A stretch of DNA of 64,000 nucleotides from Candidatus Woesebacteria bacterium (lineage in GTDB: Bacteria > Patescibacteriota > Microgenomatia > UBA10105 > UBA927): the NCBI GenBank assembly GCA_044223895.1, contig JBGALL010000001.1, positions 27,506 through 91,505 on the forward strand, read 5' to 3'. How positions within the stretch are numbered: the first letter of the stretch is position 1; each line of letters starts with the position of its first letter. Positions 2,401 through 58,584 of this stretch are shown piece by piece. The notes under the pieces are model-generated. The model saw nothing but the letters and a program-made list of their open reading frames with translations, did no database searches and was not told where the DNA came from. Both the position numbers and the translations under genes were made by a program.

Positions 2401-3609
2401 ATGCCAAAACGAGCTTTTTTTGAAAGTGCCAAACATCATTTATTACTTCAAGCTAAAAATATAGCCAATCAGGAACGGCTTATTGATCCCCATGCCTACC
2501 GAACCTGGAAATTGTGGGTGAACTCATTTACGTTTATTTATGTAGATCCGGATACAATTAAAATCACCTGGGACTTTCCCAAAAAAGGTTCCGACACTAT
2601 ATCCATAAAAAAAGTTCAATATTATAGTCGTGGAGATACTCCCAAATTCGTTGAAGAACAAGAACACCATCATCAATTGTTTCATGACGATAAAGTTCGT
2701 GCCGCCAATGACAAATTGTTCCAAAGCCTGGTAATTCAACTTGCCAAAAAAGCCAGAATTCCTCTCCCAACTGCTCGAAATAAACGAACAGCGATTGATA
2801 TCGCTCGGATCCATGATGAGGAAGAATTATCTGACCATTGGGCAGAAGGTGTTGATCCTGCAAGTATCGATGTTATTCATACCAATACCGCTTTGACATC
2901 ACCAGAACTCAGATATCTTCATCAACGCATAGGAGATATCAAGGGAAAATCAGTCCTCGATCTCGGCTGTGGATTAGGGGAAGTAAGTGTCTATTTTGCA
3001 CTTCAAGGAGCGGATGTTACTGCAGTTGATTTATCACAACCAATGCTCGATGTTGTTCAACAGGTTGCCAAACGCTATAAAGTGAAGTTGAAAACAGTTC
3101 AAGCCTCGGTTGAAGAACTCGACAATTTAAAAAAACATTCTTTTGACATTATCTATGTTGGGAATTTATTTCATCATGTCAATATTCCCAAAACCTTAAA
3201 ACATGTTACCAGAGTCTTAAAACCATCCGGTCAGCTCATTTGTTGGGAACCGGTTGATTATAACCCGGTAATAAATGTGTACCGTAAGATCGCCAATAAT
3301 GTTCGCTCGTACGATGAACGTCCCTTTCGGATGAGTGATATAGAATTATTTAAACAAACCTTTAAAACAGTAGAAATTCGCTGGGCTTGGTTTAGCACCT
3401 TATTTGTTTTCGTCTATATGGCACTGGTACAACGTCGAGATCCGAATAAAGAACGCTATTGGAAAGTAGTTATCAAAGAATCTGAAAAATGGCGTCCACT
3501 CTATGCACCATTAGAAAAATTCGATCGATTTATTCTTAAGACCTTCCCAGCACTCGGTCCTCTTTGCTGGAATGTTATTCTCGTTTGTTCCGGAGTGAAA
3601 AAAAACTAA
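2401..3609 (+). CDS. Class I SAM-dependent methyltransferase with ~170-aa N-terminal extension of unknown function
   Basis: Motif I VLDLGCGLGEVS, followed by DLS and VGNLFHH post-I/II motifs. Confidence 0.8.
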   Translation: MPKRAFFESAKHHLLLQAKNIANQERLIDPHAYRTWKLWVNSFTFIYVDPDTIKITWDFPKKGSDTISIKKVQYYSRGDTPKFVEEQEHHHQLFHDDKVRAANDKLFQSLVIQLAKKARIPLPTARNKRTAIDIARIHDEEELSDHWAEGVDPASIDVIHTNTALTSPELRYLHQRIGDIKGKSVLDLGCGLGEVSVYFALQGADVTAVDLSQPMLDVVQQVAKRYKVKLKTVQASVEELDNLKKHSFDIIYVGNLFHHVNIPKTLKHVTRVLKPSGQLICWEPVDYNPVINVYRKIANNVRSYDERPFRMSDIELFKQTFKTVEIRWAWFSTLFVFVYMALVQRRDPNKERYWKVVIKESEKWRPLYAPLEKFDRFILKTFPALGPLCWNVILVCSGVKKN

Positions 3610-3978: not shown

Positions 3979-5337
3979 CTAAGGAAGGATAGGTAGCTTT
4001 ATGGGTATAGACTCAATGTTGTATACATATCTATGGTAATCATACAGTTTCAGTGATCCCCACAAGATATAACTTACACTAATAATTAACGGAGTTACGA
4101 TACCCATCACTACGAGATTAGGAAGATATTTTCGTACCATAAAAACCCCATATCCGATGATGAGTACCCACATCGCCCAACCAGAATAACTTGATCCCAC
4201 CATTCCGTAGGACATAAAGGTTGCAAAAATGGTCATTAATGCAGGAACTGGCAATACCAAGCTGATTAATTGACTCTGTTTGGAATACCAGATTCCCCAG
4301 ACCGTGGTAATTATTACCAGACAGGAAGCAATAAACCAAGAAAGAATTATGAGGTTGGAATCTATCTCAAATATATGGTGAGGATCAGCGGTATAAAAAT
4401 ACCATCCTAAATACCCGATGATCGCTCCTGGAATTATGAGATACACTCCCTTACGTATACTCGATGGAATATATTTTGCTGCCCATACAAGTATTCCGAT
4501 TCCCAATATTGGTAACAACAATGGCACAAACAGTCCAAATCCATTTTTATATTCACTTAGTACTAACTGAATAATTGGTCCAACATTTCTAGTCTGAGAT
4601 GGCAATACGAATAGTTGATAATAGGCTTGTCCTAAAGCATTATTAACCATCAACCACAAGATAAATCCACCTAATAATGAATAAGCTGTCATAAAAATAG
4701 GAGCCAAAGAATGTATTGCCTGAGCACCTTGTTTTCTAATAAAGCCTAGGGTAATGAAGAAAGAAGCTGATCCTAGAAATAAGATTCCATAATTTTGTTT
4801 AATAAGTACCGGGATAATCAGGCTGATACCAGTAACCACCGACAACAAGAGTGAACGCTTTGATGCAAAAATCATCGTTAGTATCATGTACAGAGAAAAT
4901 AAAATTGCACACATAGCAGTCATGTCATAAGAAGGAATCGGATAATAGGCATGTCCTCGAAAGAGAAATGGCAGAATCAGGATATTTGGCCATAGGTCTG
5001 AAAATTGAAAAAATTTCCGTTGAATTCTCAAGAGTAAAAAAACAGATACGGCAGTGGTTCCATATGCCACCAACATTTGAGAATTGTGACCATATCCGCC
5101 AACCAGATGCATAACCAGTTGCATGAGGAAAAATAATCCTGGAGGAAGTACCAGAAAAAAATCTCGATAGGGCATCTTTCCTTGAAATAGTTGAAAGGCT
5201 GATTCTACGTTGTAGGCATAATCGATCTGAATAAAGAATCGATGAATCGACCAGTAATGAATCGCAATTGCTGCAAATATAGTAAGTAAATCAAGAATTA
5301 TTAGAATGAATACTCTTCGAGAGATACGATCAGACAT
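3979..5337 (-). CDS. Polytopic membrane protein, GT-C-like (PMT_2/ArnT-like fold suspected)
   Basis: At least 10 hydrophobic segments. The early loop KMPYRDFFLVLPPG resembles loop-1 motifs of PMT_2/DUF2029-type transferases. Confidence 0.55.
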   Translation of the reverse strand: MSDRISRRVFILIILDLLTIFAAIAIHYWSIHRFFIQIDYAYNVESAFQLFQGKMPYRDFFLVLPPGLFFLMQLVMHLVGGYGHNSQMLVAYGTTAVSVFLLLRIQRKFFQFSDLWPNILILPFLFRGHAYYPIPSYDMTAMCAILFSLYMILTMIFASKRSLLLSVVTGISLIIPVLIKQNYGILFLGSASFFITLGFIRKQGAQAIHSLAPIFMTAYSLLGGFILWLMVNNALGQAYYQLFVLPSQTRNVGPIIQLVLSEYKNGFGLFVPLLLPILGIGILVWAAKYIPSSIRKGVYLIIPGAIIGYLGWYFYTADPHHIFEIDSNLIILSWFIASCLVIITTVWGIWYSKQSQLISLVLPVPALMTIFATFMSYGMVGSSYSGWAMWVLIIGYGVFMVRKYLPNLVVMGIVTPLIISVSYILWGSLKLYDYHRYVYNIESIPIKLPILP

Positions 5338-5374
5338 GAGGAAATTGTAACAGCTTTAAAGAAGGGATTGTGGT

Positions 5375-6106
5375 TTATTTTCCTTTGGCAGCGTAAATCA
5401 AATTGGTTCCACAATACAAGCGATTAACAAAAGGTAAGCCTTCAAAAAAAGGCGAGATACTGACCAAAAGATCTACCATCCAATCAGGGGCAAAATATGG
5501 AACAATGGAAAAGAATTTTTGTTCTTTGATCGTATACCCATGCTCCTGAATCCAGCGATTCAGGGTAGGAGGAAAATATGATTTTTCACCATGATCTTTG
5601 TGATATTGACTGGTTTTTTCAATAACTTTTAAAATTGGGTTATATCCACTTGGTTCGAGGATAAACACATGATCACAGATCCGTGCAAATTCAGCGATAG
5701 CTGGCACAGGGTTATCTACGTGATGCAAGACGCCTCTGACAACCACAATATCGAATTGATTGGGTTTTACAAACGAAGAGATTTCAAACATATCCTGTTT
5801 TTGAAAGTTAACTATTTTTTTATACTCTTTAGGGGTAGCTTTTATAGCGTACTTAATTGATTCACCCGCAGGATCAAAGGCTAGTACCTTTTTGGGATGC
5901 AGGTGTTTAATAAGTTCAAAGGTAAACGTTCCATCTCCACACCCTACATCTAAAATAGATCGCACATGTGGGGCATGACGACGGATCATATTGATGAGCT
6001 CGGTAGTTTGAATACCAGTAGCTACAATATTAGAATGCTTATCCGTGGTATAACGATAATGTCCGGTTTGTTTTACATCGTCATCAAATACTTCGTGAGA
6101 TTTCAT
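5375..6106 (-). CDS. Class I SAM-dependent methyltransferase
   Basis: Motif I ILDVGCGDGTFT, and VVVRGVLHHV. A 4-nt ATGA overlap with the upstream ORF suggests coupling. Confidence 0.8.
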   Translation of the reverse strand: MKSHEVFDDDVKQTGHYRYTTDKHSNIVATGIQTTELINMIRRHAPHVRSILDVGCGDGTFTFELIKHLHPKKVLAFDPAGESIKYAIKATPKEYKKIVNFQKQDMFEISSFVKPNQFDIVVVRGVLHHVDNPVPAIAEFARICDHVFILEPSGYNPILKVIEKTSQYHKDHGEKSYFPPTLNRWIQEHGYTIKEQKFFSIVPYFAPDWMVDLLVSISPFFEGLPFVNRLYCGTNLIYAAKGK

Positions 6107-40679: not shown

Positions 40680-40684
40680 GGTAA

Positions 40685-41251
40685 TTACCAGCTTTTTTCT
40701 TTCTGTATATGCTCTAACGCCCGTTGAAGATAGGGAAATTTATATGGGTAGGGATAATTTCTATCGAGGATGTTATAAATCCATAACAACTTGGTATCTG
40801 TTTTGGGTGAAACATGTTTCACAATATCTAAATTATCTTCGATAAAATAATCAAACTTTTTTTCTTTAATCGTTCTTTCCTTATACATATGGGGCTGCTC
40901 ATCGTTCTTATTAATTGTTATTGAACTAAATAAATCCTCAAGATCATTCTTTCTAAGCCAATGATAAAGGTTTTTTTGTAGAAAACTATACCTCGCAGTG
41001 ACGAGGTGGGCTTCTATCTTCTTTTCTTGAGTCAGCTGTCTTAGTAGGTCAACTCCTATGGCAGGAAAGACACTTGATTCATGGAGGACGGTCCAGATAA
41101 ATCGTTCTATCCCAGTCTGGGGAATATAAAATTTTGTTTTTCGTTCACCTAAAATCTTTCGCTTCACATAGGTGACAGGAGCTCTCCCTATTCGGAACGG
41201 GTTATATGCCAACACTCCATCAAAATCTATGCCTACCTGTACTTTTTTCAT
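40685..41251 (-). CDS. Small HAD-like phosphatase/nucleotidase-fold protein
   Basis: Motif I GIDFDGVLA, motif II LVTAR, acidic motif IV FIEDN. The start is moved to ATG 41251. Confidence 0.55.
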   Translation of the reverse strand: MKKVQVGIDFDGVLAYNPFRIGRAPVTYVKRKILGERKTKFYIPQTGIERFIWTVLHESSVFPAIGVDLLRQLTQEKKIEAHLVTARYSFLQKNLYHWLRKNDLEDLFSSITINKNDEQPHMYKERTIKEKKFDYFIEDNLDIVKHVSPKTDTKLLWIYNILDRNYPYPYKFPYLQRALEHIQKEKSW

Positions 41252-41256
41252 GTAAT

Positions 41257-45039: not shown

Positions 45040-45045
45040 GTGGAG

Positions 45046-46218
45046 ATGACTGAAGTACTTCCAGCCAGACTAGATTCCCTTGATCAACCTGTTCAACCAG
45101 AACCTCAAGCCGAATATTTTGAGATACCTGTACCGATTGCCGATAAAATACTCCCTTTGTATGTACAATCCCGACCATTCGCAGGGGGTGGATTTGGTGA
45201 CATCTATGCTGCTTATCTTCCAGCTTTTCAACAATATTATGCCCTGAAAGCAGTCTCCGAATCCAAACTAAGAAATCGCTATCCAGATGATCATGAGTTT
45301 GAGATGAAAAAAATTTCCAGCCAAAGTGAGCTCGAGAAAGAAGCAGCTTTAGTGCAGGCAATCCCCCCTCATGAAAACATCGTAAAAGGTTACGGAACAA
45401 TACTTCATGAAAATCAAGTTTTTGCAGTCTTTGAATATCTTCATCCAGATAAATGGCAAAATCTTCGAGAAGCCCGTTCTTCGGGAAGGCCATTTTCCTT
45501 ACAAGAAACAGACACTATTCTGGAACAAGTTATAGCTGGTTCCAATCATGCACGTCTTAATATGACACCCCAACGCGATCCAACTCCTGATAATATTATG
45601 GTCACCAAACAACCGGACAAACTGGGTAAACACCACATCAAATTGATTGATTTCGGAGCGACGGACTTAGTATTCGAAACGTCTTCGATACTCAGGCCAC
45701 AAGATCAGAGAGAGCGAATAGGTGTATCAACTGGATACATAGCTCCAGAGTTATTTGATAATAGGGTGTACACACCTCAAACCATGGTGTATTCATTGGG
45801 TGTTATTGCCACAGAGATGGTCGTCGGTAAAAATGTATTTAAAGGTGAAGAGGATGAGATTTGGACCCTAGAACAAGGATTAACCCCTGTACGGATAGAT
45901 TTATTACTAGAACAACGCGGATATCCAGAAGAAGTTAGAAAAGTCTTTTCGATTGCCACGTCTGAATTAGAAAAACGATACAAAACCCCCGAAGAATTTT
46001 TGCAGGCGTTACGGGAAATTTCCTGGTACCCCATCCCTATAGTCGCTCAAGAAACGATGGTGGAGGGATTTCATGATAATGAAACGCATCAGGTAGTTTT
46101 TTCAGGGACACAGGTATTAGAGACCACCCCACAATTATCAGTGGAGTTACGTCCGACAGCTAAGCCTCAAAAAAAAGACTTCATCAATCGACTTATCGCC
46201 AGACTGCGCAAGATCTAA
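45046..46218 (+). CDS. Ser/Thr protein kinase (Hanks type), cytoplasmic, with atypical catalytic loop
   Basis: G-loop GGGFGDIY, YALKAV lysine, catalytic loop QRDPTPDNIMV (Thr where DxKxxN has Lys), DFG, GYIAPE. Confidence 0.85.
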   Translation: MTEVLPARLDSLDQPVQPEPQAEYFEIPVPIADKILPLYVQSRPFAGGGFGDIYAAYLPAFQQYYALKAVSESKLRNRYPDDHEFEMKKISSQSELEKEAALVQAIPPHENIVKGYGTILHENQVFAVFEYLHPDKWQNLREARSSGRPFSLQETDTILEQVIAGSNHARLNMTPQRDPTPDNIMVTKQPDKLGKHHIKLIDFGATDLVFETSSILRPQDQRERIGVSTGYIAPELFDNRVYTPQTMVYSLGVIATEMVVGKNVFKGEEDEIWTLEQGLTPVRIDLLLEQRGYPEEVRKVFSIATSELEKRYKTPEEFLQALREISWYPIPIVAQETMVEGFHDNETHQVVFSGTQVLETTPQLSVELRPTAKPQKKDFINRLIARLRKI

Positions 46219-46273
46219 ACTAAATTACTCTCTAGGAAATGTTTCATATTTATGGTACACTACTATAGGTTAA

Positions 46274-47488
46274 ATGAGCGCAGAAAATCCCATTATCATC
46301 CCCGATTACACCAAAATCCTTGCCCTTCCTCCCGGGGAAATCAAATCTAGCCCCAAAATCGTACCAGAGGATGAACAACACTATCCAGATTACCTCCTCC
46401 CTTCAGCCATAAAGCTGGTAAATTATCTTGAACAATCATCAAAGATCTATGAGCAACTTATACAAAAACGTGAGATTACCGCCGATGATTTAGATAGTGC
46501 AATTAGTATTTACCCCTGGGAAGAGTCAGCAACCCAGATTAACCGTTATCAGATTGGCACTCAAATAGATTCGGGCGGATTAGGAGATGTGTTTATTGCC
46601 CAGGATACCTTACTAAATCAGAAATGTTGTATTAAAAAATTAAAAGCCGATAAAGCCAATGACACTAAATACCAGAGACTTTTCCTCCGGGAAGCTCTCC
46701 TGCTGATGGTTCTCGATCATCCAAACATTGTTCACGGACAAAATGTCTTTATTCATAAAGATGAGACATATCTGGTTATGGATTATATTCCAGACCCAAG
46801 TCTTCGTAAAAGAATTTATAGTGAAGGAGTTTTATCACCGGAACAAACCTTTGATGTGATCAAAGATGCTGCCAGTGCAATTGGGTACCTCCATAGTCGA
46901 GGTATAGTCTATAGAGATTTCAAAGCAGATAATTTACTCTCTGGCAATAAAAATATGTTAATAGATTTGGGAGTTTCTAGTGCTGTATATCCACATGATA
47001 GCAATACCCTTGTAGGAACAGTCGGATATATCAGCCCCAATGATTTTATAGATGATCCTTCAAAAGACGTACTCTCAATGGGAGCTACTATTTACGGAGC
47101 CTTAACAGGTGACACTGATGGACTTTTTACCCGAACTACCTTGGTAGATTCCTTAGCAACCGTAGGCCGAAGAGAAACCTTTATTCCCACAATCGGCAGA
47201 ATGACCTTAAATTTAAAGAATAAAGGCTACAATAATGCCAAGGATTTTGGTCTAATTATTGACAGAGCTACCCATCCAGATCAATTTAGCAGATATTCTT
47301 CCATGAATGAACTGATCAGTGCCTTTGAAATTGCAATCAAAAACAAAAAAGGAAAATCTTCGACCAGGAAAATACTCTATCCTTTAGAAGCAGTACCCCA
47401 ACCTGAGAATCAACCACAAACAATTATTTTTGACTTTGGGGATATGGGATCAACTTCTGGATCTAGCGTGGCAAACACCGGGGATTAA
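46274..47488 (+). CDS. Ser/Thr protein kinase (Hanks type) with ~95-aa N-terminal extension
   Basis: GGLGDVF, CIKKLK, HPNIV, YRDFKADNLL, DLG (DFG variant), GTVGYISPN. Confidence 0.85.
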   Translation: MSAENPIIIPDYTKILALPPGEIKSSPKIVPEDEQHYPDYLLPSAIKLVNYLEQSSKIYEQLIQKREITADDLDSAISIYPWEESATQINRYQIGTQIDSGGLGDVFIAQDTLLNQKCCIKKLKADKANDTKYQRLFLREALLLMVLDHPNIVHGQNVFIHKDETYLVMDYIPDPSLRKRIYSEGVLSPEQTFDVIKDAASAIGYLHSRGIVYRDFKADNLLSGNKNMLIDLGVSSAVYPHDSNTLVGTVGYISPNDFIDDPSKDVLSMGATIYGALTGDTDGLFTRTTLVDSLATVGRRETFIPTIGRMTLNLKNKGYNNAKDFGLIIDRATHPDQFSRYSSMNELISAFEIAIKNKKGKSSTRKILYPLEAVPQPENQPQTIIFDFGDMGSTSGSSVANTGD

Positions 47489-47492
47489 AAAA

Positions 47493-47557
47493 GGTCATAC
47501 CCTTGGTGGAAGATAGCACGCCTGCCCAACATACTATCCTCCACTAAAAATATGACC
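47493..47557 (+). other. Long imperfect stem-loop immediately after the kinase 2 stop
   Basis: Outer arms GGTCATA (47493..47499) / TATGACC (47551..47557). Inner arms TGGTGGAAGATAG (47504..47516) / CTATCCTCCACTA (47534..47546), with one mismatch and one G:U. 17-nt loop. Confidence 0.6.
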
Positions 47558-47803
47558 TGTAACAATTTAATTTGTCCTATATAATTCTGGACACTCTCTC
47601 TGTTCAATACTCATCCCTCTGGATATGTCCCCTACTCAATACCTTATGTTTTTCTCGTGTCGAAGACCATTGTAACGCGCGACCTAGTAAATGTCAACAA
47701 AAAAGAATTAACATGCGAAAACCTTGTTTTGACGTGACAAATAAATTTTCTTGAACGTAAAAAATCATTTGACACAAGCTAATTTCCTTGTTAGTGTTAC
47801 TAG

Positions 47804-47903
47804 CACAAGTACTGATTAACTGTCCTAGTATCGGTACCATCAAAAGGCATTACTACTCGTAGACGCTCTTCCAGGTTTCTAGCGGTAGTGATGCTTTTTT
47901 TTT
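47804..47903 (+). ncRNA. Candidate ~100-nt small RNA (promoter plus intrinsic terminator, no ORF)
   Basis: TTGACA (47769..47774), 17-nt spacer, TAGTGT (47792..47797). Downstream, a 10-bp stem GCATTACTAC / GTAGTGATGC is followed by T9. Confidence 0.3.
47847..47903 (+). terminator. Rho-independent terminator
   Basis: Stem 47847..47856 / 47885..47894 (one G:U), inner CGCT/AGCG helix, then nine T residues at 47895..47903. Confidence 0.6.
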
Positions 47904-48041
47904 GGTCTGCAGTTAATGAGTGAATTGATATTCACGAATTTCCTGCCACCAATCCACCGTAGCTTTAGCGTTGGTGGATAGTACATATTGTTAATCTATA
48001 TAACAACTCTGCCCAGATGTTGCTATATATTTTGAATTTGT

Positions 48042-48101
48042 ATCACTGCCTGCCCAGGCAAGTGATTGAAAGAAAGTGACCATCCTTCAATTGTTTTTTT
48101 T
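48042..48101 (+). terminator. Tandem hairpins followed by a T8 run (possible second terminator)
   Basis: ATCACTGCC (48042..48050) / GGCAAGTGAT (48057..48066, one bulged A), then ATTGAA/TTCAAT, then T8 at 48094..48101. Confidence 0.35.
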
Positions 48102-48158
48102 AATGTGTCGAATTTCATAGGTATAGTTTGATTCAACCACTTTCGTTTTTTTTCGTCA

Positions 48159-48201
48159 AGACCTATATTTATTTTGTAAATTATTTTTCATAGACCTATA
48201 T
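48159..48201. repeat. Direct repeat AGACCTATAT x2, 33 nt apart
   Basis: Exact 10-mers at 48159..48168 and 48192..48201 inside an AT-rich ORF-free stretch. Confidence 0.6.
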
Positions 48202-48380
48202 ATTTTAGATGGCTAAATAGATTGATTTGGCAAGATATTTTTTCTCATATATTTTTTGTGGATAACTTATGGACAACTTTATTGCCATCAATTTCCCCTT
48301 TTTCCTTCTTATTGCACATCCACTAGGTGAGTATTTCGGTAATGAGAATGTAAGGAGTGAATAAAAACCAGAAGGTACTG

Positions 48381-48917
48381 TTACAAAATAGAAAAGGTTA
48401 TCGCTTTTTCGAGAGAAGATAAATACACGGTACGAATTTCTTTTAAACTTTTTCTGTTGCCATTTTCGTCTACCTCAGAGTTATCGGAACGTAAGAGAAA
48501 GAACGTCTCTTTAGAAATACGTAGCTTTTGCTGTTTATTAGCTTCAAAAGTTACTGGCAACACCACAAAATAATCTTCATACATACCTTTACCAGCATGG
48601 AGTACATATTTAATTGAACAGTGCCCCGTATATTCTTGAATACCTTTTTTATAGTCTTTATCGACCTTTATATATCGAAGACCATCGAGAATCCCTAACA
48701 CCGTTACGAGGATGATGAGAAAAACCAAACTGGTTTGGGTTAACACCACAGAGGTAATGGCTACACCGGCAATTGGAACTAAAATAAGAAGGAACAGGAG
48801 AAAGAATCGATAATATTGAAGAACTTTTTTGTAGTTATCTGGAGTGATACTCTCAAGAAATGCGGGGTGAGCTAAGGACCCTAATACCAGCAAAAAAATA
48901 GGCGCTATACCGAGCAT
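48381..48917 (-). CDS. Hypothetical membrane protein (3 N-terminal TM segments + soluble C-terminal domain)
   Basis: Hydrophobic N-terminal 90 aa. No recognised motif. Confidence 0.5.
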   Translation of the reverse strand: MLGIAPIFLLVLGSLAHPAFLESITPDNYKKVLQYYRFFLLFLLILVPIAGVAITSVVLTQTSLVFLIILVTVLGILDGLRYIKVDKDYKKGIQEYTGHCSIKYVLHAGKGMYEDYFVVLPVTFEANKQQKLRISKETFFLLRSDNSEVDENGNRKSLKEIRTVYLSSLEKAITFSIL

Positions 48918-52002: not shown

Positions 52003-52098
52003 ATGTGTTTCTTTGTTATACCAGATTTGCGTACTTTCTACGAACGCATTGAAGACTACCACGATGATATTTTAGGAAAACTTTACGAAGGATGAAGG

Positions 52099-52950
52099 TT
52101 ATTTCTTTATCTCTTTATGATGCTCATCAAAATCCACATGTTCTGGATCTACCGGTTCATTCATATCGTCTTCATTATAGCCATTGTAGTTGGAGAATAA
52201 TTCTTCCCCTTTGTGAATATCTTTCAGAGCAGTGAATAATAAGATATTATTTTTAAAACTTCTCCCAAAATAGACATTTGGCTGGTAGGAATGATTAATT
52301 AGTGCACCATAACCTAAACAGACAGCATTTTTTTGTTTGTTCCACTCAAAATAATACTTTCCTATCACCGTTTGATCCATATCTTTTTCTTCATTTCTTG
52401 GGAAGAAAACCACAGGGCATCGTTCAATGGTTTGACCTTCTTTTATATCTTCATCGGCAATAACTCCACGAATATTCAATGTTGGTGAGGTTCCTATAAC
52501 AAAGGGGAGATGAATACCTTTCTTGGAATGATCTGAACTATCTTGCTTAATTTTATGGAAGTGTTTATTACCATCTATCAATTCAGTGGGAATAGGATCA
52601 GTCCCATAAGGATTACCATTGTAGTTCACCTGTAACTCTTCTCCCGGTTGAATTGTCTTCAAAACTTTAAAGTTTAACGTATTGGCTTTGTAGTCAAATA
52701 TATATTGTATATTTGGTTCAAAGGAATGATTTACCAAACTCCCATATCCCAAAGCAATACAATGATATTTTTTGGTCCATTCAAAATAATACTTCCAAAG
52801 AACCGTATTTTTGAGGTATTTTTCCTGAGTTACCGGGAGAAACACCAAGGGACATCGCTCAGCAATACTTCCTTTTGGAATAAGCTGTGTAGCAATAAGC
52901 CCTCGAAAACCAAGGGTTGGAGAGATACCAACGGTGAATGGAAGGTTCAT
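52099..52950 (-). CDS. Tandem double SET-domain protein (putative lysine methyltransferase)
   Basis: Two ~130-aa repeats each carry the SET signatures GYGSLVNHSFEPN..GEELQVNY and GYGALINHSYQPN..GEELFSNY. The start is moved to ATG 52950, 24 nt after the rpsA stop. Confidence 0.8.
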   Translation of the reverse strand: MNLPFTVGISPTLGFRGLIATQLIPKGSIAERCPLVFLPVTQEKYLKNTVLWKYYFEWTKKYHCIALGYGSLVNHSFEPNIQYIFDYKANTLNFKVLKTIQPGEELQVNYNGNPYGTDPIPTELIDGNKHFHKIKQDSSDHSKKGIHLPFVIGTSPTLNIRGVIADEDIKEGQTIERCPVVFFPRNEEKDMDQTVIGKYYFEWNKQKNAVCLGYGALINHSYQPNVYFGRSFKNNILLFTALKDIHKGEELFSNYNGYNEDDMNEPVDPEHVDFDEHHKEIKK

Positions 52951-54768: not shown

Positions 54769-54892
54769 CCCCCAGCCTTGACCTATCTTCCAATAGCCCG
54801 CGAGAGCTAAGTATTGTGGGCGCTAACGTGTTTCACTGCTGAGTTCGAGATGGGATCAGGTGGGACCACGTTGCTCAAAAGACTGGAAGACC
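54766..54892 (-). rRNA. rrf: 5S rRNA
   Basis: The reverse complement contains GGTCCCACCTGATCCCATCTCGAACTCAGCAGTGAAAC. Terminal helix GGTCTTCCAG/CTGGGGGACC. Ends are approximate (+/- 5 nt). Confidence 0.9.
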
Positions 54893-55048: not shown

Positions 55049-58282
<3,234 letters not shown>

Positions 58283-58511: not shown

Positions 58512-58584
58512 TGGACCTGGGGGGAGTCGAACCCCCTACCTCCTCATTGCAAATGAGGCATTCAACCAGGTAAACTTCAGGCCC
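58512..58584 (-). tRNA. tRNA-Ala (anticodon UGC) upstream of the 23S
   Basis: Acceptor GGGCCTG/CAGGTCC with G3:U70, anticodon arm CCTCA-TTTGCAA-TGAGG, T arm GGGGG-TTCGACT-CCCCC. Confidence 0.9.

Follow-up and report, generated by a model that had tools for sequence, protein, structure and literature searches.

Two predicted small RNAs and a decayed small gene in a conserved intergenic cassette of Microgenomates-type Patescibacteria

The Patescibacteria, or Candidate Phyla Radiation (CPR), are uncultured bacteria with tiny genomes and few recognisable regulators, and to our knowledge almost nothing is known of RNA-based regulation among them. Considered here is a stretch of 64,000 nucleotides (nt) from a Candidatus Woesebacteria bacterium (contig JBGALL010000001.1, positions 27,506 to 91,505, assembly GCA_044223895.1), hereafter the window, and within it the 892-nt gap at 47489–48380, which runs from the stop of an open reading frame (ORF) for a Ser/Thr kinase to that of a convergent ORF of 178 amino acids (aa). 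An initial annotation, made from the letters alone, had singled out this spacer as unusually large, devoid of a credible ORF and probably encoding one or more non-coding RNAs (ncRNAs) or a cis-acting element, and in each respect it was right. The spacer is the largest ORF-free gap of the window, whose spacers have a median of 22.5 nt on a crude gene map (two map artefacts were removed before gaps were ranked); it holds no ORF of more than 60 codons, a 31-codon frame (48118–48023, minus strand) being the remnant of a conserved small gene; and it contains both ncRNA and cis-acting DNA, as two promoter-to-terminator units and regulatory DNA in an AT-rich tail. Compared with dinucleotide shuffles it folds better on both strands (z −4.45 for plus, z −7.70 for minus). 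The runners-up in length, 642 nt at 52063–52704 and 577 nt at 40680–41256, are two further ORF-poor gaps of an otherwise tightly packed window. The best explanation, and in our judgement a probable one, is that Microgenomates-type Patescibacteria pass on a regulatory cassette by vertical descent and that the spacer is this genome's copy of it, with genes for two independently promoted, terminator-ended predicted small RNAs (sRNAs), here called RNA-1 and sRNA-2. Its features and bordering genes are, in order along the window (related loci carry L numbers throughout):

46274–47488, plus strand: Ser/Thr kinase ORF, its stop bordering the gap
47485–47662, minus strand: RNA-1, predicted transcript of about 175 nt, its ends placed from promoter and U-run
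47492–47558, minus strand: 3′ hairpin of RNA-1, with an outer stem, an inner stem of 13–15 bp and the loop UUGGGCAGG, followed by U6 at 47492–47487
47633–47638, minus strand: YGAGUA box of RNA-1, 30 nt after the −10 hexamer
47669–47697, minus strand: RNA-1 promoter, TTGACA at 47697–47692, 17-nt spacer, TACAAT at 47674–47669
47769–47797, plus strand: sRNA-2 promoter, TTGACA at 47769–47774, 17-nt spacer, TAGTGT at 47792–47797
47803–47903, plus strand: sRNA-2, predicted, about 100 nt, with hairpin 1 at 47809–47837, an A-rich linker, hairpin 2 at 47842–47899 and a T9 terminator
47904–47995, no strand assigned: non-conserved filler separating the ORF remnant from the sRNA-2 terminator, with a palindrome at 47920–47935 and a hairpin at 47945–47985
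47996–48118, minus strand: decayed small ORF, ATG at 48118, in-frame TAG at 48025–48023, second TAG at 47998–47996
48066–48044 and 48024–48000, minus strand: pair of short hairpins within the ORF remnant, each bearing CUGGGCAG (z −3.5 and −3.1)
48131–48159, minus strand: small-ORF promoter, TTGACG at 48159–48154, 17-nt spacer, TTGAAT at 48136–48131
48167–48159 and 48200–48192, minus strand: direct repeats TATAGGTCT, the proximal copy abutting the −35 box
48218–48234, minus strand: conserved block TTGCCAAATCAATCTA, found also in L081, L083, L086 and the consensus of the family
48257–48276, minus strand: tandem DnaA-box-like sites, a perfect TTATCCACA at 48265–48257 preceded by TTGTCCATA at 48276–48268
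48381–48917, minus strand: 178-aa ORF, its stop bordering the gap

The RNA-1 promoter agrees with the consensus at 11 of 12 positions, and the pattern TTGACW-17-TAYAAT, often with CGCGTTACAAT, lies upstream of the RNA-1 hairpin in 72 of the 84 relatives examined, at promoter-to-hairpin distances of 44–520 nt. The predicted transcript has a minimum free energy (MFE) of −54.5 kcal/mol (z −5.8) and consists of a variable body followed by the conserved 3′ hairpin; the YGAGUA box stands at an equal distance in many relatives whose RNA-1 lies opposite sRNA-2. The hairpin begins 5 nt past the kinase stop and keeps a conserved internal loop between its outer and inner stems, and the 65-nt compound stem-loop first noticed at 47493–47557 is real, folding best on the minus strand (−41.4 kcal/mol, z −9.0). 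A covariance model (R2) finds a single match in the window at 72.8 bits (E ~1e-19), the antisense scoring 25 bits. Across 50 distinct sequences aligned without gaps, both sides change in 16 of the hairpin's 23 pairs, 93.7% of cells are paired (against 77% when shuffled and ~47% in a slid register) and the covariation score is 0.53 as opposed to 0.22 in shuffles, none of 500 of which reaches the observed values. G.U pairs mark the minus strand as the sense strand. A 15-codon frame through the hairpin was dismissed because the stem covaries as RNA. The loop motif is found within 2 kb in 60 of the 63 loci recovered solely through the sRNA-2 arm (see below), and its invariance is therefore no artefact of the search.

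On the plus strand the loop UUGGGCAGG reads CCTGCCCAA (47521–47529), and with the two CUGGGCAG hairpins at 48066–48044 and 48024–48000, which are not present in L081, it accounts for the three CTGCCCA heptamers correctly reported at 47522, 48009 and 48050. The heptamer occurs 10 times in the window, counting both strands, against 4.3 ± 1.9 expected, three of the copies lying on one strand of the 892-nt spacer; a TGCCCA cluster at 7.2–7.6 kb proved to be coding sequence. Two matches to ribosomal RNA (rRNA) were likewise set aside: an 8-nt match of the loop to 23S rRNA (CCUGCCCA at 56411–56417, sense strand) is at chance level for a 3.2-kb RNA, a 10-nt match of a hairpin arm to 5S rRNA is at or near chance, and neither is supported by this organism's 5S sequence; a resemblance to the 5S rRNA of Escherichia coli was dropped as well. 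RNA-1 is found in both orientations relative to sRNA-2: the window has the two on opposite strands, L001 has them in tandem. In many relatives it reaches 200–500 nt and is made of nested copies of one module, with the GGCAGG motif present two or three times. Nested and sometimes identical hairpin modules, with repeated 3′ arms and terminators downstream, are seen in L200 (~5000–5450), L164, L157, L181 and L139; such nesting could reflect multivalent display of the loop, or self-insertion beside it.

For sRNA-2, the initially noted promoter/terminator pair was likewise real, TTGACA at 47769–47774 and TAGTGT at 47792–47797 being followed by a hairpin and T9 run that end at 47903. Aligned relatives keep a −35 box TTGACA and a −10 box TAnnnT at fixed spacing, with an A/T-rich stretch just before the promoter, a constant distance from promoter to RNA in all of them, and a U6–U9 run after hairpin 2. 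The RNA folds at an MFE of −35.9 kcal/mol (z −6.35). An unfitted MAFFT alignment covering 83 distinct sequences shows change on both sides in all seven pairs of helix 1 and pairing in 97.7% of cells, values reached by no shuffle and no slid register. Helix 2 is invariant, its 5′ arm, which was not used as a search pattern, as much so as its 3′ arm; read from the opposite strand, its three to four G.U pairs would turn into A.C mismatches, and for this reason the window's plus strand is taken as sense. A second covariance model (R1) has a single window match (71.4 bits, E ~1e-12; antisense 25 bits) and gives no score on unrelated loci. Hairpin 2 is predicted to double as a bidirectional terminator that also ends the small-ORF transcript. 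In L208, directly after the small-ORF stop, 2985–3016 appears to be a shortened antisense copy of hairpin 2 lying at the contig end, which may be an assembly-end artefact. Covariation in relatives, proposed at the outset as a check, is thus strong in both RNAs, and own promoter, intrinsic terminator and conserved structure, the marks by which an sRNA is recognised, are predicted for each.

Other elements of the initial description fared less well. The sequence of a second hairpin with a T8 run is present, but its plus-strand hairpin folds no better than shuffles (z −0.03) and its reading as a terminator was rejected. The palindrome GTGAAT-TGAT-ATTCAC exists, two bases from where it had been placed, at 47920–47935, but it is weak (z −2.2) and absent from relatives. 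The filler in which it lies has weak folds (z −2.2 and −2.5) and no counterpart in L081, L083, L086 or L208.

The AT-rich end of the spacer is the putative control region of a small protein gene, in which a promoter and direct repeats are joined by two predicted DnaA boxes near −105. The promoter is conserved across the family and near-identical in L208 (CTTGACGAC/AAAAAAACGAAAGTGA/GTTGAAT), whose PIN-TRAM protein is 83% identical to that of the window. Direct repeats had already been remarked in this tail and are genuine (AGACCTATA at 48159–48167 and 48192–48200); relatives keep them as TATAGG/TATGGG, about 40 nt apart. The tandem DnaA-box-like sites run in the order TTGTCCATA-AG-TTATCCACA, and the perfect box (48257–48265) is the sole one in the 64 kb. 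It recurs in 81 of the 85 relatives with enough upstream sequence; of 71 distinct loci, 64 have it 104–108 nt ahead of the −35 box. A known parallel is Bacillus subtilis sda, a DnaA-box-controlled small regulator gene, which the cassette resembles in having putative DnaA boxes upstream of the promoter of a ~50-aa protein gene, and from which it differs in that its small-ORF family shows no sequence relationship (Pfam finds nothing).

By sequence comparison, the small gene appears intact in relatives and decayed in this genome. Aligned with the intact copies of L208, L081 and L086, the window's ORF continues into the ancestral C-terminus past its first stop; a hidden Markov model (HMM) of the family finds L208, L086 and L081 (E 1e-20 to 7e-12) and has no match in the window, whichever frame is read, the spacer included. 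The suspicion that the region might consist of remnants of a degraded protein gene is accordingly right for some 120 nt (47996–48118) and wrong for the rest of the spacer. In relatives the ORF encodes 45–75 aa ending ...SPxxxERxRFExEVKEQFxKLKEKGLSIPVFTL, the C-terminal 35 residues being strongly conserved. The family has no Pfam match and its sources name it just 'hypothetical protein'; a profile search of 1.84 billion representatives returned 97 clusters, all of 43–109 aa and always with the motif C-terminal. The protein is charged and hydrophilic, with no membrane segment, and AlphaFold gives one long helix and an extended tail (predicted local distance difference test score, pLDDT, 73), too simple for a fold search. 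In the small proteins of relatives (e.g. L208 2808–2981; P0123) the tail GLSIPVFTL is invariant, and it resembles short C-terminal docking peptides such as clamp-binding motifs, a likeness that we offer as a lead only.

The address of the cassette, between a PIN-TRAM (yacL-like) gene and an amine-oxidase-like gene, is the same in more than 100 related CPR genomes. The window's PIN-TRAM protein has hundreds of close relatives, of which the few that are named belong to Candidatus Gottesmanbacteria or to the Patescibacteria group, as do the named matches of the small protein. Loci fetched through PIN-TRAM homologues, and so independently of the sRNA-2 sequence (L001, L081–L086, L208), all keep a gap of 0.95–1.17 kb between the PIN-TRAM gene and the convergent amine-oxidase-like gene and carry the same cassette parts. 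A 20-mer from the sRNA-2 3′ arm, common to the window and the most distant locus, L001, led to at least 120 further metagenome loci, and among those listed the PIN-TRAM gene lies upstream in 75, the amine-oxidase gene downstream in 55 and RadA further upstream in 39. The units are kept in more than 80 distinct related loci, which plainly answers the doubt, raised with the initial annotation, as to whether relatives would conserve them. The 178-aa ORF and the window's two kinase genes occur in none of some 75 syntenic relatives; they were inserted in this lineage alone, on both flanks of a cassette that is older. These two Ser/Thr kinase genes and the membrane-like 178-aa ORF (45040–47488 and 48381–48917) flank the cassette only in this genome; exact-protein look-ups for the kinase, the 178-aa ORF and P0001 gave no record, and Pfam has no match for the 178-aa ORF. 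L001 (CAYUUX010000005.1) has the order 23S-5S, RadA, PIN-TRAM, cassette, amine oxidase, syntenic with the Patescibacteria locus, and its record label, 'uncultured Gammaproteobacteria', is probably wrong. A phage origin was rejected: sRNA-2 has no match in viral contigs, and two viral matches to the RNA-1 pattern failed both models.

Evidence for what the RNAs may do comes from pairing in the family. In most relatives the hairpin-2 loop of sRNA-2, typically CCCAAACCCAA, has 10–18 nt of perfect complementarity to the small-ORF mRNA, at a fixed site 133–166 nt before the stop codon, at the LGLG codons. Flanking positions of sRNA and mRNA change together by lineage (L091/L131, L119, L150, L193, L137 and L188), for example AGCAACAUUGGGUUUGGG in L091/L131, GCGUUGGGUUUGGGAAAG in L119, AUUGGUUUGGGAUC in L137 and AGCACGAUUGGG in L188. 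The duplex runs on into the hairpin-2 3′ arm, GCUAGCGGUAGU pairing with the KLLLA codons ACUACUGCUAGC, to give 20–24 contiguous pairs; the local duplex reaches −42.6 kcal/mol against −21 ± 2.5 for shuffled mRNA, and cognate pairs beat non-cognate ones by a mean of 4.8 kcal/mol. The loop of hairpin 1 (UUUGCCCAAU, UCUGCUCAA and others) forms 7–10 pairs with the RNA-1 loop in 41 of 45 opposite-strand loci, with a mean of 8.4 as compared with 6.15 for shuffled targets, and its substitutions are all C/U opposite a G of the RNA-1 loop.

The complementarities lie in the sequences themselves and suggest a regulatory outcome. Across the family, sRNA-2 would regulate the mRNA of the adjacent small ORF in antisense: the loop CCCAAACCCAA of its hairpin 2 would seed pairing around the LGLG codons, the duplex would spread into the 3′ arm (GCUAGCGGUAGU with ACUACUGCUAGC) and open the hairpin, and the resulting duplex would repress the small-ORF mRNA by blocking translation or triggering cleavage. 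The RNA-1 loop may pair with the first-hairpin loop of sRNA-2 (YYUGYYCAAY) as a kissing partner or decoy, and DnaA might tune transcription of the small ORF. Loop-loop ('kissing') antisense control is familiar from ColE1 RNA I/RNA II, R1 CopA/CopT and hok/sok. The cassette shares with these systems its complementary apical loops (UUGGGCAGG with YYUGYYCAAY, CCCAAACCCAA with UUGGGUUUGGG) and a possible spread into the stem; unlike them it is chromosomal, has no role in plasmid copy number or maintenance, encodes its partners at separate sites and lacks the loop-loop match in ~40% of loci. Decoy or sequestering RNAs are likewise known, as CsrB/RsmZ for CsrA and the chbBC spacer for ChiX, and here the likeness is an invariant short loop motif, repeated in the RNA-1 of many relatives and present three times on one strand of the window; in contrast to CsrB/RsmZ, the motif is not GGA and the bound factor is a candidate only. 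We know of no dedicated decoy gene adjoining its sRNA.

Several observations weigh against this scheme. Firstly, where RNA-1 and sRNA-2 are arranged in tandem, the loop-loop complementarity is absent. Secondly, in the lineage that comprises the window, L081 and L083, shuffles do as well as the real sRNA-2/mRNA duplex, and the loop-loop match there is just 6 pairs, a value reached by 58% of shuffled targets. Thirdly, hairpin 2 is invariant even where complementarity to the mRNA is absent, and antisense pairing therefore cannot be its sole constraint. To these must be added that transcript ends and strands were deduced from promoters, terminators and G.U pairs, that most loci were recovered through the hairpin-2 3′ arm, whose invariance is thus partly by construction, and that sequences related by descent lead shuffle statistics to overstate independence. 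In the window, then, the protein target has been lost and both pairings are at chance, with both RNAs fully conserved, hairpin 2 and the RNA-1 loop included; it follows that the invariant parts are read by something besides the small-ORF mRNA, for which a protein recognising the invariant loop and stem is the likeliest candidate.

The foremost rival takes that thought further, and we regard it as a possibility to be taken seriously, though decidedly the less probable one: RNA-1, and perhaps also the invariant hairpin of sRNA-2, would be mainly protein-binding, the loop UUGGGCAGG titrating or recruiting a conserved protein, with the small protein or the adjacent PIN-TRAM ribonuclease (RNase) as candidate partner. 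It would explain why loop and hairpin-2 stem are invariant even without detectable RNA complementarity, and it sits well with the nested modules repeating GGCAGG in the RNA-1 of many relatives, with three CUGGGCAG/UUGGGCAG hairpins on one strand of the window and with a PIN-TRAM gene that is always adjacent. However, PIN-TRAM genes are widespread in bacteria that give no match to the cassette, the partner protein is a candidate only, and the restriction of loop-1 changes to C/U opposite the RNA-1 loop G is what RNA pairing predicts.

Antisense control by sRNA-2 of a neighbouring small ORF also invites comparison with type I toxin-antitoxin (TA) systems and their kin. Antisense sRNA/small-ORF pairs include bsrG/SR4 and txpA/RatA of B. 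subtilis, which are convergent with 3′ overlap, and tisB/IstR-1, dinQ/agrB and zor/orz of Escherichia coli, which are separately encoded with ~20–30 nt of complementarity. As in these, a small ORF in the cassette adjoins an independently promoted sRNA; the two share a convergent terminator and, in the main clades, a complementary patch of 10–30 nt near the ORF 5′ end that co-varies between lineages. If the small ORF were a toxin and sRNA-2 its antitoxin, with the toxin lost here and the antitoxin kept, the shared terminator, the 20–30 nt of extra complementarity near the ORF start and the decay of the ORF with retention of the sRNA would all be accounted for. We nevertheless consider this unlikely. 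Type I toxins are hydrophobic, whereas this protein is hydrophilic, a long helix and extended tail with no membrane segment, and its C-terminal 35 residues are strongly conserved; the gene is single-copy at one syntenic chromosomal site and has an elaborate promoter with putative DnaA boxes; viral contigs give no match; and the window lacks an intact ORF. The antisense complementarity expected of such a system is present in most relatives and absent from the window, L081 and L083. Unlike the known antisense pairs, moreover, the cassette has an sRNA stem that is invariant even without a target, and it adds a second conserved RNA and DnaA boxes.

A plainer account strikes us as very unlikely, namely that the hairpins serve only as bidirectional intrinsic terminators for the convergent genes, amid promoter debris and with no functional RNAs. 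Its attraction is that the RNA-1 hairpin lies 5 nt past the kinase stop with A- and U-runs on both sides, that hairpin 2 of sRNA-2 would also end the small-ORF transcript, and that both 3′ hairpins have the stable stem and U-run of an intrinsic terminator and, like bidirectional terminators, are flanked by A-run and U-run between convergent transcription units. This covers their ends and not their whole function: 9-nt loops and 17-bp stems are invariant across loci whose flanking proteins are 57–85% identical, both units have conserved promoters of their own at fixed distances, hairpin 1 of sRNA-2 and the YGAGUA box fall outside any terminator, and RNA-1 occurs in either orientation relative to its neighbours. 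The cassette differs from simple bidirectional terminators in the fixed sequence of its loop and stem, in promoters of its own and in further conserved domains. Lastly, a DNA-level element, a replication origin or other DnaA-dependent cis site, is suggested by the tandem boxes, one of them perfect, and by the AT-rich DNA beside them (GC 0.31), whose direct repeats the family conserves, but is the most improbable of all: there are two boxes only, they are fixed 104–108 nt from the promoter in the manner of an operator, which is the better reading of these putative sites, and an origin is unlikely because cumulative GC skew is monotonic through the site and across the window and genes converge on the spacer.

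With respect to described RNAs, the Rfam scan recommended with the initial annotation was run and found no family: Rfam 15, whose families take in 6S, SRP, tmRNA, RNase P, T-box, riboswitches and published candidate motifs, gave nothing on the spacer at gathering score, the only matches at E up to 10 were microRNA-model noise at the hairpin, scoring 18 bits where the cut-off is 130, and the cassettes of six relatives gave nothing at E up to 0.5. Since Rfam finds nothing, RNA-1 and sRNA-2 lie outside described families, and text searches of the literature on CPR small RNAs and on the motif strings brought up no description of either RNA. The RNA families are new; promoter-to-terminator sRNAs with antisense control of a neighbouring small ORF are a known kind, and the combination of such an antisense sRNA with a second dedicated RNA and DnaA boxes is new. 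As far as sequence can tell, the ncRNA genes are both new and genuine, and their mechanism is one that we in part infer.

Elsewhere in the window, a 23S rRNA match at 55053–58276 (minus strand) spans 3224 nt against a 2925-nt model, i.e. ~300 extra bases; a 5S rRNA (54770–54887, minus) follows it and a transfer RNA (58512–58584, minus) precedes it. No 16S accompanies this 23S-5S pair in the remaining 5.4 kb of the window, and the 16S gene is unlinked.

The yield for the biology of the Patescibacteria is two covarying RNA families with defined promoters, terminators and a fixed genomic address, together with a predicted mRNA target showing compensatory changes and putative DnaA boxes hinting at a link with the replication cycle. 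Both families are candidates for Rfam-type curation, metatranscriptome mining and heterologous reporters, and the window is an informative natural variant in which the protein gene has decayed and the RNAs have not. More speculatively, and at a probability we would put rather low, the cassette may be a three-RNA circuit found across a CPR class, in which DnaA controls the mRNA of a tiny protein, an antisense sRNA invades that mRNA through a hairpin loop and an adjacent decoy RNA bears one to several copies of the invariant sRNA-matching loop, with a further, protein-independent role for the RNAs because they survive intact where the protein gene is lost. If true, such a circuit would couple an RNA-only switch to the replication state of organisms whose set of regulators is minimal.

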